Source: a virus (taxonomy: Duplodnaviria > Heunggongvirae > Uroviricota > Caudoviricetes). Taken from it: a DNA stretch of 4,588 bases. Position numbers and translations under genes: made by a program. Numbering within the stretch: position 1 is the first letter of the stretch; each line of letters opens with the position of its first letter. Location of the stretch: the IMG/VR virus record IMGVR_UViG_2671180903_000007; one strand, written 5' to 3'. Shown here in pieces: positions 1 to 4,588 of this stretch. The notes beneath the pieces are model-generated. The model did no database searches, was not told the DNA's origin, and was given only the letters and a program-made list of their open reading frames with translations.

Positions 1-2
1 CG

Positions 3-767
3 GTGGTACTGGCAACCCGTAAATACGTGGATGATGAAGTCCTGGAATTAAAGCTGTATGTGGATGACCAGATGAGAAACCACATTGCCGCACAGGATCC
101 TCATACCCAGTATGCGCAGAAACATAATCCGACATTTACCGGAGAACCAAAAGCGCCGACGCCTGCCGCAGGAAATAACACCACGCGGATTGCGACCACT
201 GAGTTTGTTCAGGCCGCTATTACCGCTCTGATTAACGGTGCGCCAGCCACACTGGACACACTGAAAGAAATTGCCGCGGCCATTAACAATGACCCGAAAT
301 TCAGCACCACCATTAACAATGCGCTGTCAGGTAAGCAGCCACTGGATGAGACGCTGACTCATTTGAGCGGAAAGGATGTTGCTGGTCTTCTCGCATACCT
401 TGGTTTGGGAGAAGCGGCAAAACGGAATGTAGGTAACGGGCAAAACCAAATTCCGGATATGGCGGCATTTGCCAGTTCACTTTCATCAACGGGTTTTCAA
501 AAACTCCCTTCAGGTCTGATTATTCAGTGGGGTATTGTCAGTGGAGCATCAAACTATACGGTGACTTACCCGGTAACATTCCCAAATCGTTCACTTGCGC
601 TGTTGGCTGTGCCACATACAACGTCGGTGGCTGGTATATCTGCAATGGGCATAGCGAACTGTTCTGATATCAGCAAATCACAGTTCTATATAATTGTTGG
701 CGGTATATCTCAGGGAGAAATTGTCAAACATGAAAGGTCCTGTTTTTGGGTAGCAATCGGTGTATAG
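3..767 (+). CDS. Phage tail fibre protein, 5'-partial: constant region fused in frame to variable C-terminal cassette Sv1
   Basis: ORF is open from the window edge, so the gene continues upstream. It contains the tail-fibre-type motif TTEFVQAAITALINGAPATLDTLKEIAAAINND. The segment from codons LGLGEAAKRNVG (nt ~399 onward) to the stop at 765-767 is duplicated as a mirror copy on the minus strand at 2860-3222. This is the pattern expected for a constant region joined to an invertible variable tip, as in Mu S or P1 gene 19. Confidence 0.85.
   Translation: MVLATRKYVDDEVLELKLYVDDQMRNHIAAQDPHTQYAQKHNPTFTGEPKAPTPAAGNNTTRIATTEFVQAAITALINGAPATLDTLKEIAAAINNDPKFSTTINNALSGKQPLDETLTHLSGKDVAGLLAYLGLGEAAKRNVGNGQNQIPDMAAFASSLSSTGFQKLPSGLIIQWGIVSGASNYTVTYPVTFPNRSLALLAVPHTTSVAGISAMGIANCSDISKSQFYIIVGGISQGEIVKHERSCFWVAIGV
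388..413 (+). other. Crossover site L for a Gin/Hin/Cin/Pin-type invertase (26 bp, imperfect dyad)
   Basis: TTCTCGCATACC-TT-GGTTTGGGAGAA fits the recalled half-site pattern of gix/hix sites (TTnnnnnAAACC / GGTTTnnnAnAA around a central dinucleotide). Identity with the other two copies begins exactly at the central TT (400-401). The site lies inside the tail fibre reading frame. The consensus is from memory, not from a search. Confidence 0.6.
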
Positions 768-775
768 GTATATCT

Positions 776-1171
776 ATGATTTATTTCTCAAAATCGACTA
801 ATGGTTTTTTCTTTGATGGTATAAACAGCGACATGCCTGCTGACATTGTTGAGATAAGTACAGACTTATACAATGAATTAATTGCCGGACAGCAGGAAGG
901 GGGTAAATTAATCACGTCAGATGAAAATGGTTTACCGGTACTGAAATCTCCGGCGATTGATTATGTCGCACGTGCTGAAAATCAGCGAATGCAGTTACTT
1001 GCTCATGCCGATAATGTCACAGCTGACTGGCGGGTGGAATTAATGCTTGGTGATATCAGCAGTACAGATAAAGAAAAACTATCTGCCTGGATGGATTACA
1101 AAAAAGAAGTAAAAGCCGTCGACACTTCGACGGCTCCTGAGATTAGCTGGCCTGAGTTACCGGAGGCGTAG
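776..1171 (+). CDS. Tail fibre assembly protein (Tfa chaperone, type 1), cognate to Sv1
   Basis: C-terminus VDTSTAPEISWPELPEA matches the conserved Tfa C-terminal motif (P2 G / Mu U / lambda Tfa family). It lies immediately downstream of Sv1 on the same strand. Start is placed at ATG 776, preceded by AGGT 6 nt upstream; the ORF track start at 746 is a TTG inside the fibre gene. Confidence 0.8.
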   Translation: MIYFSKSTNGFFFDGINSDMPADIVEISTDLYNELIAGQQEGGKLITSDENGLPVLKSPAIDYVARAENQRMQLLAHADNVTADWRVELMLGDISSTDKEKLSAWMDYKKEVKAVDTSTAPEISWPELPEA

Positions 1172-1586
1172 GCCATTCAATATCTGGCGCACCGGAAGTA
1201 TCGACCAGCTCCAGTGTGTCCAGATAATCCAGCCACAAATTATATTGCGCCAGTTCCTCACCTTTCAGACGACCAATAGCCGCTTTACCGGGCCATTGCT
1301 TACTGTTCATGTATTCGTTAGCCTGGTTAATTAGTAGCTGTCTTTCTGATTCAGTAATTTCAATAAGCTCTTCATGCGTGGGTGGAGGAATATCTGCCCA
1401 CGCAGGCAGCCCATCATCTCCGGCAATACGGATTTTTCCTTGTGGCGGTTCAGCCATAAACTCACTGATAATATTTTGATTCACCTCCTTTGCATCTGAT
1501 AAATCCCATCCCTCTGATTTATATTTATCAATCATATCCACAGGGAAAAAAGCATTATGCCTTGCGCTATAAACATATTCGTTCAT
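1143..1586 (-). CDS. Tail fibre assembly protein (Tfa chaperone, type 2), cognate to Sv3
   Basis: C-terminus LVDTSGAPDIEWPTPPVTQAS is the same Tfa motif. It is convergent with the type-1 Tfa gene and overlaps it by 29 bp at the 3' ends. Start is placed at ATG 1586; an alternative GTG at 1595 would give a protein beginning MIY, like type 1. Confidence 0.8.
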   Translation of the reverse strand: MNEYVYSARHNAFFPVDMIDKYKSEGWDLSDAKEVNQNIISEFMAEPPQGKIRIAGDDGLPAWADIPPPTHEELIEITESERQLLINQANEYMNSKQWPGKAAIGRLKGEELAQYNLWLDYLDTLELVDTSGAPDIEWPTPPVTQAS

Positions 1587-1634
1587 ATAAATCACCCTGA
1601 ATAAAATTACTCACCAACAGCCCACCAACTGTAA

Positions 1635-1660
1635 TTCATCGATACATTGGTTTGGGAGAA
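1635..1660 (+). other. Crossover site M (third copy, direct orientation relative to L; outer half-site atypical)
   Basis: 1647-1680 is identical to 400-433 (34 bp, starting at the central TT). The outer half TTCATCGATACA (1635-1646) is not a dedicated half-site; all but its last base belongs to the inverted-repeat arm, being the Sv3 C-terminal codons read on the opposite strand. Confidence 0.4.
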
Positions 1661-2020
1661 GCGGCAAAACGGAATGTAGGAACAGGGGAAAATCAGATAC
1701 CGGATATGGCTTCTTTTGCCAGTGGTGATGGATGGATGAAATTACCCAACGGTAAAATCCTGCAATATGGTCGAGGTGCGGTTACGCCGACATTATCGAC
1801 GCAAACAATGAGAATTACATTCAGCATCCCTTTTCCTAAAAAAGTGGACTGCGCCATGCTTACCCATTCTGGTGATGGTGGTGCGCCTTTAGGCGCTGGA
1901 CGGGGATTCGTGATGACTGCAGAAGGTCCAACACTAACCGGTTTTAATTCCGCTTACAGAACTGCATCAACCAGTTCCACAGTATCGATGAATTACAGTT
2001 GGTGGGCTGTTGGTGAGTAA
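1652..2020 (+). CDS. Silent alternative tail-fibre C-terminal cassette Sv3 (no start of its own)
   Basis: Begins with the same GEAAKRNVG crossover-encoded peptide as Sv1 and then diverges (GTGENQIPDMASFAS vs GNGQNQIPDMAAFAS) into an unrelated ~110-aa tip. It is in the same frame relative to the crossover centre as Sv1. The M in the ORF track is a TTG codon inside the crossover sequence. It is followed on the same strand by Tfa type 2. Confidence 0.6.
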   Translation: MGEAAKRNVGTGENQIPDMASFASGDGWMKLPNGKILQYGRGAVTPTLSTQTMRITFSIPFPKKVDCAMLTHSGDGGAPLGAGRGFVMTAEGPTLTGFNSAYRTASTSSTVSMNYSWWAVGE

Positions 2021-2040
2021 TTTTATTCAGGGTGATTTAT

Positions 2041-2484
2041 ATGAACGAATATGTTTATAGCGCAAGGCATAATGCTTTTTTCCCTGTGGATATGATTGAT
2101 AAATATAAATCAGAGGGATGGGATTTATCAGATGCAAAGGAGGTGAATCAAAATATTATCAGTGAGTTTATGGCTGAACCGCCACAAGGAAAAATCCGTA
2201 TTGCCGGAGATGATGGGCTGCCTGCGTGGGCAGATATTCCTCCACCCACGCATGAAGAGCTTATTGAAATTACTGAATCAGAAAGACAGCTACTAATTAA
2301 CCAGGCTAACGAATACATGAACAGTAAGCAATGGCCCGGTAAAGCGGCTATTGGTCGTCTGAAAGGTGAGGAACTGGCGCAATATAATTTGTGGCTGGAT
2401 TATCTGGACACACTGGAGCTGGTCGATACTTCCGGTGCGCCAGATATTGAATGGCCTACGCCTCCGGTAACTCAGGCCAGCTAA
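2041..2484 (+). CDS. Tail fibre assembly protein type 2, second copy (identical to 1143-1586)
   Basis: Identical 150-aa translation in the ORF track. ATG 2041 is preceded by AGGGTGA; an alternative GTG lies at 2032. It sits directly downstream of Sv3 on the same strand. Confidence 0.8.
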   Translation: MNEYVYSARHNAFFPVDMIDKYKSEGWDLSDAKEVNQNIISEFMAEPPQGKIRIAGDDGLPAWADIPPPTHEELIEITESERQLLINQANEYMNSKQWPGKAAIGRLKGEELAQYNLWLDYLDTLELVDTSGAPDIEWPTPPVTQAS

Positions 2485-2851
2485 TCTCAGGAGCCGTCGA
2501 AGTGTCGACGGCTTTTACTTCTTTTTTGTAATCCATCCAGGCAGATAGTTTTTCTTTATCTGTACTGCTGATATCACCAAGCATTAATTCCACCCGCCAG
2601 TCAGCTGTGACATTATCGGCATGAGCAAGTAACTGCATTCGCTGATTTTCAGCACGTGCGACATAATCAATCGCCGGAGATTTCAGTACCGGTAAACCAT
2701 TTTCATCTGACGTGATTAATTTACCCCCTTCCTGCTGTCCGGCAATTAATTCATTGTATAAGTCTGTACTTATCTCAACAATGTCAGCAGGCATGTCGCT
2801 GTTTATACCATCAAAGAAAAAACCATTAGTCGATTTTGAGAAATAAATCAT
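2456..2851 (-). CDS. Tail fibre assembly protein type 1, second copy (identical to 776-1171)
   Basis: Identical 141-aa translation in the ORF track. Mirror of 776-1171 under p to 3627-p. Confidence 0.8.
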   Translation of the reverse strand: MIYFSKSTNGFFFDGINSDMPADIVEISTDLYNELIAGQQEGGKLITSDENGLPVLKSPAIDYVARAENQRMQLLAHADNVTADWRVELMLGDISSTDKEKLSAWMDYKKEVKAVDTSTAPEISWPELPEA

Positions 2852-2859
2852 AGATATAC

Positions 2860-3222
2860 CTATACACCGATTGCTACCCAAAAACAGGACCTTTCATGTT
2901 TGACAATTTCTCCCTGAGATATACCGCCAACAATTATATAGAACTGTGATTTGCTGATATCAGAACAGTTCGCTATGCCCATTGCAGATATACCAGCCAC
3001 CGACGTTGTATGTGGCACAGCCAACAGCGCAAGTGAACGATTTGGGAATGTTACCGGGTAAGTCACCGTATAGTTTGATGCTCCACTGACAATACCCCAC
3101 TGAATAATCAGACCTGAAGGGAGTTTTTGAAAACCCGTTGATGAAAGTGAACTGGCAAATGCCGCCATATCCGGAATTTGGTTTTGCCCGTTACCTACAT
3201 TCCGTTTTGCCGCTTCTCCCAA
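2860..3222 (-). CDS. Silent inverted copy of the Sv1 tail-fibre C-terminal cassette
   Basis: 120-aa translation identical to the C-terminal 120 aa of the 3-767 ORF. No constant region is upstream of it on the minus strand; the apparent start is TTG inside the crossover sequence. Confidence 0.6.
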   Translation of the reverse strand: MGEAAKRNVGNGQNQIPDMAAFASSLSSTGFQKLPSGLIIQWGIVSGASNYTVTYPVTFPNRSLALLAVPHTTSVAGISAMGIANCSDISKSQFYIIVGGISQGEIVKHERSCFWVAIGV

Positions 3223-3239
3223 ACCAACGTTTTATGGAA
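3214..3239 (-). other. Crossover site R (inverted relative to L)
   Basis: Plus strand reads TTCTCCCAAACC-AA-CGTTTTATGGAA. Read on the minus strand it is TTCCATAAAACG-TT-GGTTTGGGAGAA, with the same centre and inner half as L and an outer half that differs from L. Inverted-repeat identity ends exactly at the central dinucleotide (3226-3227). Confidence 0.6.
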
Positions 3240-3328
3240 TCGGTTAAATATGATGTTGAAAGAAGGGAATGTCCTAGTATTGATTGTTAGATAAAAATGG
3301 AAAGTGCTGATTGTAACGGTATATTTTA

Positions 3329-3364
3329 AGATGGTAACACCAAATGGTGCTACCATCTTTATTA
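3329..3364. terminator. Candidate intrinsic terminator hairpin
   Basis: AGATGGTAACACC-AAAT-GGTGCTACCATCT forms a 13-bp stem with one mismatch and a 4-nt loop, followed on the plus strand by TTTATTAG. It lies just below the stop of the minus-strand 105-aa ORF (3366-3368) and downstream of the fibre cassette on the plus strand, so it could act in either direction. Confidence 0.4.
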
Positions 3365-3365
3365 G

Positions 3366-3683
3366 TTATCTGTTCCTTCTGAGGATTCCGCTACTCCCTT
3401 GTGTTGTAGGGTTTAATTTTTTCCAATAATGATAACCTTGTGATGTAATCCTTAGAGAGGCAGTATCTACACTCCATCCATCATTACTTTCAGGAGAACC
3501 ATCGAAGATTACCTTTCCTGTAAGATACCCATCGTCATGCAGAAAGGCGATATATCCATAAACTTCTTTTAAATCACCAATTTCATTGACTAGGCGTTCC
3601 CACGCTTGAACAGTGATTCTCTCTGGATAGGCTTCGACAAAATATTTCAGTGTGGTAGTTTTTTTATTGATATCGATGTTCAT
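3366..3683 (-). CDS. Hypothetical protein, 105 aa, solitary gene in an AT-rich island (possible moron)
   Basis: ATG at 3683-3681 with AGGA about 8 nt upstream on the minus strand. Hand-counted GC is about 32-38% here versus about 60% in a hand-counted stretch of the invertase gene. I cannot assign it to a family by eye. Confidence 0.65.
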   Translation of the reverse strand: MNIDINKKTTTLKYFVEAYPERITVQAWERLVNEIGDLKEVYGYIAFLHDDGYLTGKVIFDGSPESNDGWSVDTASLRITSQGYHYWKKLNPTTQGSSGILRRNR

Positions 3684-3881
3684 CAGATTTTCCTTTTATT
3701 GAGGTCAACCTATCTTACCATACTTAATTGTTTCACATGGGAATGCTAAGTGGGCTATGTATCCACTATCAGTAAATATTCTTATCCAGCAAGATTACTG
3801 TAACTGAGAGCCCCATAGCCTTGTCCGCTTGTACATATATAGATAATTCTGTGTCATTATTCTGTTTTTATAGGGATTTTT
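3684..3881. promoter_or_regulatory. Divergent AT-rich intergenic region, presumed to hold promoters for the 105-aa ORF and the invertase
   Basis: 198-bp non-coding gap between divergently oriented start codons. A possible -10 GATAAT at 3842-3847 and -35-like TTGTCC at 3821-3826 have suboptimal spacing. An AGGGA ribosome-binding site lies 9 nt before ATG 3882. Promoter positions are not established. Confidence 0.3.
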
Positions 3882-4475
3882 ATGCGTATAGGTTATGTTC
3901 GTGTATCAACAAATGACCAGAACACGGAATTGCAGCGTAACGCGCTCGAGTGCGCAGGATGTGAGCTGATTTTTGAGGATAAAATCAGCGGCACGAAGTC
4001 CGACCGACCGGGACTGAAAAAACTGCTCAGAACATTATCAGCAGGTGACACTCTGGTAGTCTGGAAGCTGGACCGGCTGGGGCGTAGTATGCGGCATCTG
4101 GTCATTCTGGTTGAGGAGCTGCGCGAACGCGGCGTTAATTTTCGCAGCCTGACAGATGCTATTGATACCAGCACGCCGATGGGGCGTTTTTTCTTTCATG
4201 TGATGGGTGCTCTGGCTGAAATGGAGCGAGAACTCATTGTCGAGCGGACACGCGCCGGACTGGAAGCGGCCAGAGCCAAAGGGCGTATTGGTGGCAGACG
4301 TCCGAAGCTCACCGCGAGTGAGTGGGAACAGGCAGGACGGTTGCTGGCTGCGGGTGAATCACGTCAACGCGTGGCGCTGATTTTTGATATTGGCCTGTCC
4401 ACGCTCTATAAAAAATTCCCCTCATCAGCGGCAAAGAATAAATTGTGTCATCCCTTAGCCAACCGGGACAAATAG
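3882..4475 (+). CDS. Serine DNA invertase, Gin/Pin/Cin/Hin family (small serine recombinase)
   Basis: N-terminus MRIGYVRVSTNDQNTELQRNAL with the catalytic Ser at codon 9 (3906-3908). Central motifs DTLVVWKLDRLGRS and MGRFFFHVMGALAEMERELI, and a C-terminal helix-turn-helix region (GLSTLYKK), are near-identical to Gin of Mu and Pin of e14 as I recall them. Confidence 0.95.
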   Translation: MRIGYVRVSTNDQNTELQRNALECAGCELIFEDKISGTKSDRPGLKKLLRTLSAGDTLVVWKLDRLGRSMRHLVILVEELRERGVNFRSLTDAIDTSTPMGRFFFHVMGALAEMERELIVERTRAGLEAARAKGRIGGRRPKLTASEWEQAGRLLAAGESRQRVALIFDIGLSTLYKKFPSSAAKNKLCHPLANRDK

Positions 4476-4534
4476 CCTGACATCTCCGGCACAACTGAAA
4501 ATATCACTCACCCATTAACCACGGAGTTAAACGG

Positions 4535-4588
4535 ATGAGTGACTATCATCACGGCGTGCAGGTGCTGGAGATTAACGACGGCACCCGC
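4535..4588 (+). CDS. Tail sheath protein (P2 FI-like), 3'-partial, first 18 codons
   Basis: MSDYHHGVQVLEINDGTR closely matches my recollection of the N-terminus of the P2 FI major tail sheath protein. GGAG lies 9 nt upstream of ATG 4535. The ORF runs off the window end. Confidence 0.6.
   Translation, partial: MSDYHHGVQVLEINDGTR

Follow-up and report, generated by a model that had tools for sequence, protein, structure and literature searches.

Among the DNA inversion systems described so far, the P segment of e14 (E. coli K-12) and the tail-fibre region of the P2-like Escherichia phage pro483 come closest to the locus analysed here. In e14, a fibre gene is followed by a cassette with two tail-fibre-assembly genes and then by the gene for the invertase PinE. 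The same order is found in the window (the whole stretch of DNA that was analysed, 4,588 nucleotides), whose invertase is 86.7% identical to PinE at the protein level; the crossover sequence TT GGTTTGGGAGAA is identical, and the predicted Fis cores lie in the same register. The two loci differ in that the window belongs to a P2-like prophage, where the invertase has the tail-fibre cassette on one side and the tail-sheath gene FI on the other, in that its invertase has a C-terminal tail 13 aa longer than that of PinE, and in that 655 bp separate the core of crossover site R from the ATG of the invertase gene, compared with 68 bp in e14. The invertase of pro483 is closer still, with a protein identity of 96.4%, a length of 197 aa in both cases, the same genomic position and the same crossover sites L and R; unlike the window, however, pro483 has no low-GC island between cassette and invertase (R core 67-68 bp from the ATG), carries other fibre-tip alleles, and lacks the extra partial copy that extends from L to site M.

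The C segment of P1 encodes an invertase, Cin, with 79.2% protein identity; the enhancer at nt 19-90 of cin aligns without gaps onto positions 3900-3971 of the window, and the Fis cores are 97% identical, whereas cin lies on the opposite side of its cassette, with cixL at the cin 3' end, and the P1 half-sites are GGTTTAAGAGAA. Gin of Mu and Hin of Salmonella share with the window the fold, the catalytic Ser9 (Ser10 in Hin), the Fis-contact residues, the basic patch of helix B, and a pair of Fis cores spaced by 48 bp at the gene's 5' end; the protein identities are 78.8% (Gin) and 65.4% (Hin). Their core dinucleotides are different from the TT of the window (GA in gix), and Hin controls a promoter, not fibre tips. 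Inversions of tail fibres in P2-like prophages have been shown experimentally in E. coli (EPEC), including at a locus with three repeats (PMC4272514).

The invertase and its crossover sites

The window covers the tail-fibre region in a P2-like (Peduovirus) prophage of E. coli, with the following features.

3-767, plus strand: 3' part of fibre gene H, ending as fibre tip A
388-413, plus strand: crossover site L, TTCTCGCATACC TT GGTTTGGGAGAA, core 400-401, inside tail-fibre gene H
776-1171, plus strand: tail-fibre-assembly gene tfaA
1143-1595, minus strand: tail-fibre-assembly gene tfaB
1635-1660, plus strand: site M, TTCATCGATACA TT GGTTTGGGAGAA, core 1647-1648, in direct orientation to L
1652-2020, plus strand: second fibre tip B
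after tip B, up to 3222: second copies of tfaB (plus strand), tfaA (minus strand) and tip A (minus strand)
3214-3239, minus strand: crossover site R, TTCCATAAAACG TT GGTTTGGGAGAA, core 3226-3227, inverted relative to L and M
3882-4475, plus strand: invertase gene, ATG at 3882, stop at 4475, 197 aa, Resolvase catalytic domain and HTH_7 DNA-binding domain
4293-4424, plus strand: HTH_7 DNA-binding domain (aa 138-181), including Q150, R153 and L154

Past position 3222 follow, in order, a low-GC stretch, the invertase gene and the start of the P2 tail-sheath gene FI.

The gene at 3882-4475 is an ordinary, intact Pin/Gin-type DNA invertase of this prophage, in agreement with the initial annotation, which had assigned it to the Gin/Pin/Cin/Hin family with an intact catalytic Ser9. 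Its product matched the Pfam families Resolvase (2.9e-52, aa 3-135) and HTH_7 (1.1e-12, aa 138-181), showing the N-terminal resolvase domain and C-terminal HTH domain, within about 180-200 aa, of the Hin/Gin/Cin/Pin subfamily, as well as PHROG 125, "DNA invertase" (1e-99). The closest solved structure is that of Mu Gin (3uj3/4m6f; E value, 8.5e-94), which is colinear with aa 1-184; in this alignment Ser9 stands opposite Gin residue 9, a serine in 4m6f and an engineered S9A substitution in 3uj3. The serine at this position of Gin forms the covalent link to DNA (PMC3575834). The active-site arginines R7, R42 and R65 (R8, R43 and R66 of Hin) are also intact, and the reading frame has the length of its pro483 homologue, with neither the frameshift nor the mutated catalytic serine that the initial annotation had named as possible evidence against an invertase. 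RefSeq entry WP_024247059.1 is an identical protein, annotated merely as "recombinase family protein." Past the HTH domain (4425-4472), the invertase ends in the tail SSAAKNKLCHPLANRDK, which is common to pro483 and missing in Pin, Cin and Hin. A consensus scan gave no convincing promoter directly upstream from the invertase gene, and the terminator-like matches that it gave within the gene are probably due to chance.

Sites L, M and R are all hix-like 12-2-12 sites. L and R are inverted relative to each other, are 26 bp long, and share an identical TT core and the inner half-site GGTTTGGGAGAA. Since core and inner half-site are the same as in both pix sites of e14 and in the sites of pro483, an enzyme acting on L and R is well founded. 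Action on M had been proposed as well, and this part of the proposal is not supported, M being a hybrid with sequence of fibre-tip gene B that was absent from all other sequences searched. Overall, the locus is an unremarkable member of a well-known invertase system.

Site M and the inverted duplication

M joins the canonical inner half-site to a quasi-site taken from fibre-tip gene B, at the 3' end. Its outer half is the reverse complement of the last-44-nt region of this gene (TTCATCGATACT GT GGAACTGG...), and the quasi-site corresponds to the reverse complement of positions 1968-1993. The break in M lies within 1-2 nt of the crossover core, and the base at position 1646 (A) is explained by neither parent; a synonymous polymorphism was considered as its source and rejected, the required ACT codon occurring in no relative. 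The junction sequence, GATACATTGGTTTGG, was absent from 5426 complete E. coli genomes, from IMG/VR, and from the JGI metagenomes.

Positions 400-1645 and 1982-3227 form a 1246-bp inverted duplication, 100% complementary, with its arms 336 bp apart (1646-1981). Positions 1-1645 are 100% identical to genomes with the cassette in orientation 1, and positions 1647-4588 match genomes with orientation 2; the window thus reads as if the first part of an invertible cassette in orientation 1 had been continued by the last part of the same cassette in orientation 2. None of the 5426 complete E. coli genomes is colinear with positions 1-3300, and the related ones all lack exactly the 1247 bp between L and M. 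A multiple-inversion system would have at least three conserved sites bounding distinct tip modules; here, there are only two tip alleles, A and B, and the segment bounded by M repeats part of the cassette at 100% identity. Since M was found in none of the other sequences searched, it does not belong to a conserved system of three sites; together with the duplication, it arose either in a one-off rearrangement involving a quasi-site or as an assembly path.

The assembly path is a serious contender, to which we give somewhat less than an even chance. It would mean that the three-site layout is unreal, the duplication having arisen as an assembly walk through co-existing isomers of a two-site cassette, with the enzyme acting on L and R only. 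The division of the window between matches to the two orientations, the absence of any colinear complete genome, with just the 1247 bp missing from relatives, and the failure to find the M junction in any collection searched are all consistent with such a walk, as is the occurrence of the exact invertase protein on many short contigs, which suggests that this region often breaks assemblies; one public genome, MLI108K2, has a garbled palindromic consensus at the cassette. The M junction, however, argues against this explanation. It is new sequence, having only 4 nt (ATAC) in common with the parental sequences, and must therefore exist in reads; moreover, its position within 1-2 nt of the crossover core of a canonical site points to a real quasi-site event in part of the population. 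M looks like the product of a recombinase event at a quasi-site, and recombination at quasi-sites was reportedly described for Cin by Iida and Hiestand-Nauer in 1986-87. We therefore lean, by a modest degree, toward a 1.25-kb inverted duplication that is real in one molecule rather than an assembly walk through co-existing isomers. The picture of three sites, L, M and R, rests on a junction seen nowhere else and is not to be treated as an evolved shufflon.

The cassette of MLI108K2 (NZ_CP117001.1, locus L087, 1601-3631) has a consensus that is garbled and partly palindromic, with many indels and frameshifted genes, which looks like the result of polishing over mixed orientations. The cassette is clean in MLI108K1, of which MLI108K2 is apparently a sibling isolate, to judge from the strain name and the source record of the latter (same stool sample, Mali).

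The predicted Fis-binding enhancer

GenBank annotates an enhancer of Cin-mediated inversion at nt 19-90 of cin in P1 and at nt 19-86 in P7. We made a codon alignment of the window gene with those of pro483, e14 (pin), P1 and P7 (cin), and Mu (gin) and with hin taken from a Salmonella genome; it was gap-free except for the single extra N-terminal codon of hin. Because it runs without gaps against the annotated cin gene of P1, the enhancer of the window is placed at 3900-3971, and the alignment with gin, hin, cin and pin that had been suggested as a means of locating it thus gave the equivalent of P1 cin nt 19-90.

3900-3971, strand not applicable: predicted recombinational enhancer, homologue of the annotated P1 cin enhancer (cin nt 19-90)
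3904-3918, centre 3911: predicted Fis core I, TATCAACAAATGACC, with pyrimidine-purine (Y-R) steps at +/-3-4 and C at +7
3906-3908, plus strand: catalytic Ser9 codon TCA, within Fis core I; TCA in 28 of 28 representative genes
3952-3966, centre 3959: predicted Fis core II, GCGCAGGATGTGAGC, with G at -7, C at +7 and both Y-R steps

The centres of the two predicted cores are 48 bp apart. An independent check of their placement comes from Hin, for which the AT-rich segments ATTTA and TAATG are stated to fall between the two Fis sites (PMC3798978); in the codon alignment, these segments of hin are the codons GAT TTA ... CGT AAT GCG, which do lie between the two cores. Regulatory Fis sites have G/C ends and Y-R steps at +/-3-4 (PMC4784862). 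Both cores have the steps, and core II has both G/C ends, while core I has T at -7, not the preferred G, and G at -8, as it does in hin, gin and cin; G at -8 has been reported to be unfavourable for Fis (PMC4784862). The centre of core II is G/C rich (GGATG), and G/C pairs at the centre of a Fis site reduce affinity (PMC3711457). Shifting core I to 3903-3917 would give it G at -7; this register was rejected, since it loses both Y-R steps, brings a T, disfavoured by Fis, to +4, and gives a spacing of 49 bp. Both cores fit the early Fis consensus KNNYRNNWNNYRNNM, which was itself derived from these enhancers. A literal sequence search of the literature for published hin or gin enhancer sequences gave nothing relevant.

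To examine conservation, we assembled 82 invertase genes, consisting of the references and 75 genes from 79 IMG/VR loci, which gave 68 distinct sequences; clustering at 97% left 28 representative genes. Both cores were in register in all 68 distinct genes, and within the first 405 nt of the 28 representatives, the paired pattern was unique to the core positions; at the level of sequence, the gene thus has the two Fis sites, 48 bp apart at its 5' end, that characterize these enhancers. The single degenerate Fis motif is by itself uninformative for locating sites (41 matches in the window versus 41 expected), whereas the paired pattern occurs 3 times versus 0.27 expected per window. The other two paired matches come from a single tfaA sequence, which each arm of the inverted repeat contains (1041-1103 and 2524-2586), and are probably due to chance.

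Both cores are under extra synonymous constraint. Codons 9-12 (TCA ACA AAT GAC), in core I, show zero synonymous variation and rank first among 130 blocks, codons 25-28, in core II, rank 5 to 8 of 130, and the paired core blocks rank first among 114 placements for low synonymous diversity. The low diversity at the cores persists with clustering at 97%, 90% and 85%. Identity to P1 and Mu is 93-97% in the cores but drops to 71-72% elsewhere in the gene. At synonymous sites, the intervening spacer varies as much as the remaining gene, which fits the modest effect of spacer sequence reported for Hin (PMC3798978).

Conservation of this kind might also have come about through translation initiation, mRNA structure or recent gene exchange, in an enzyme without a functional Fis enhancer. 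Core I (nt 23-37 of the gene) lies in the region whose sequence influences the initiation of translation, the Fis motif is a degenerate one, and related sequences are non-independent samples. Core II (nt 71-85), however, lies beyond the initiation zone yet ranks 5 to 8 of 130, the codons flanking core I vary freely on both sides, and the blocks coincide with an annotated enhancer. The protein itself argues in the same direction. In Hin, K47, R48 and K51, which form the basic patch of helix B, and Q151, R154 and L155, which contact Fis, are reported to be conserved only among Fis-dependent invertases; their equivalents are all present in the window (K46, K47 and R50; Q150, R153 and L154). H106 and M114 are wild type, and the M114V substitution makes Gin Fis independent (PMC3575834). 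The Fis-contact residues are thus kept, and residues whose mutation gives Fis independence are wild type. Overall, we consider an origin of the conserved blocks in constraints other than Fis binding to be quite improbable.

A Fis-binding enhancer is thus very probably present inside the gene at 3900-3971, judging by homology and conservation. From these features we infer that Fis would bind the predicted cores and that inversion would be Fis dependent. The initial annotation had correctly expected an enhancer inside the 5' coding region, at 3950-4080; since the annotated P1 enhancer and both cores map to 3900-3971, this interval was about 50-100 bp too far 3' and includes only core II. That the enhancer nevertheless lies at 3950-4080 (nt 69-199 of the gene) is very improbable: core II (3952-3966) and single degenerate Fis-like matches at 4036-4050, 4059-4073 and 4082-4096 do fall within or near it, but the annotated enhancers of P1 and P7 stop at nt 90 and 86, none of the 28 representative genes has another paired pattern with 48-bp spacing within its first 405 nt, and the synonymous diversity of codons 31-135 equals the gene average (0.44-0.60). 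With its centre at about 3935, the enhancer predicted at 3900-3971 is separated by 708 bp from the core of R (3226-3227) and by 3534 bp from that of L (400-401), much as had been anticipated (about 0.7 and 3.5 kb).

The low-GC island and inversion of the cassette

The distance between R and the predicted enhancer is due to an island with a GC content of 0.36-0.37, compared with 0.53 in the invertase gene.

3233-3905: low-GC island, about 0.67 kb, taking the place of a spacer that is usually about 55 bp long and of the first 24 or so nt of the invertase gene
3366-3683, minus strand: orphan ORF105, 105 aa, in the island

Of 70 related loci, 68 have the core of R 63-68 bp upstream from the ATG, which brings the proximal Fis core to about 97 bp from R, as in the arrangement in Salmonella (PMC3798978). 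The distance of 655 bp was found only in the window and in one IMG/VR contig (2 of 70 loci), and it puts the predicted enhancer 684-708 bp from R instead of the usual 100 bp or so. Positions 3231-4588 are present at an identity of at least 96% in 24 of the 5426 complete E. coli genomes, two of which match at 100%. On its right, the island reaches into the invertase gene up to about nt 24, at the 5' edge of Fis core I; the nearest relative without the island is 99.3% identical over nt 25-594 and matches at only 18 of 24 positions over nt 1-24, and an L2R change in the invertase is private to island carriers.

ORF105 has homologues in only 5 clusters, from E. coli and Citrobacter, and matched nothing in Pfam, PHROG, NCBIfam or PADLOC; its AlphaFold model is poor (pLDDT, 51.8), and it may be an accessory gene of the prophage. 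At 3328-3359, between site R and the ORF105 stop codon, there is a hairpin with a perfect 15-bp stem (AAGATGGTAACACCA / TGGTGCTACCATCTT), followed by TTTATTAGTT on the plus strand, which resembles a terminator but was not called by the consensus scan. No RNA family of Rfam matched in the window.

Enhancers of the Hin/Gin/Cin family act at a distance and in either orientation, and by analogy, the enhancer would be expected to function at 0.7 kb from R. The short native loop of Hin is thought to restrain extra rotations of the subunits, and it has been suggested that a longer loop permits them (PMC3798978). For this reason, recombination in the island lineage might be more processive and less faithful; M would then be a product of relaxed control, and since the right edge of the island abuts the invariant Fis core I, the enhancer might also serve as a homology anchor for module exchange. 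We regard this combination of ideas as speculative and improbable.

The orientation of the cassette is naturally polymorphic. A protein identical to the invertase of the window is encoded beside a cassette in orientation 1 in 5 genomes (strains 1613, PK5074 and MLI108K1 and two drafts) and beside a cassette in orientation 2 in 6 genomes (GZ04-0086, 5444, CREC8 and three others). That an identical protein adjoins both orientations in different E. coli genomes argues that inversion occurs, and this comparison of genomes points to inversion of the flanked segment in vivo. The invertase is very probably active; that it is an inactive remnant beside a frozen cassette, for which the private L2R change and the lack of a consensus promoter upstream from the gene might be cited, is hardly credible in view of the intact reading frame, the full set of catalytic residues, and the occurrence of the identical protein beside cassettes of both orientations.

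Taken together, these results make it highly probable that the locus encodes an active Pin-type invertase that flips a tail-fibre cassette via L and R, with a Fis-bound internal enhancer at 3900-3971. Dimers of the invertase would bind the 26-bp sites L and R, with their TT core and inner half-site GGTTTGGGAGAA, and would invert the cassette with the alternative fibre-tip and tail-fibre-assembly genes, thereby switching the C terminus of the tail-fibre protein H. Activation would need host Fis bound in cis to the enhancer in the invertase gene, as for Hin, Gin and Cin, through two Fis cores 48 bp apart, of which core I overlaps the Ser9 codon.

The practical value of these findings lies in correct annotation, in that the predicted enhancer of an invertase widespread in prophages can be given to the base pair, at 3900-3971, overlapping the codon for the catalytic serine. 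The variant with the island, which 24 of 5426 complete E. coli genomes carry, offers a natural test of the influence of enhancer distance on the control of inversion. More generally, the comparison provides clean evidence for dual-use coding DNA, since across the Pin, Cin, Gin and Hin lineages no part of the gene varies less at synonymous sites than the two predicted Fis cores.
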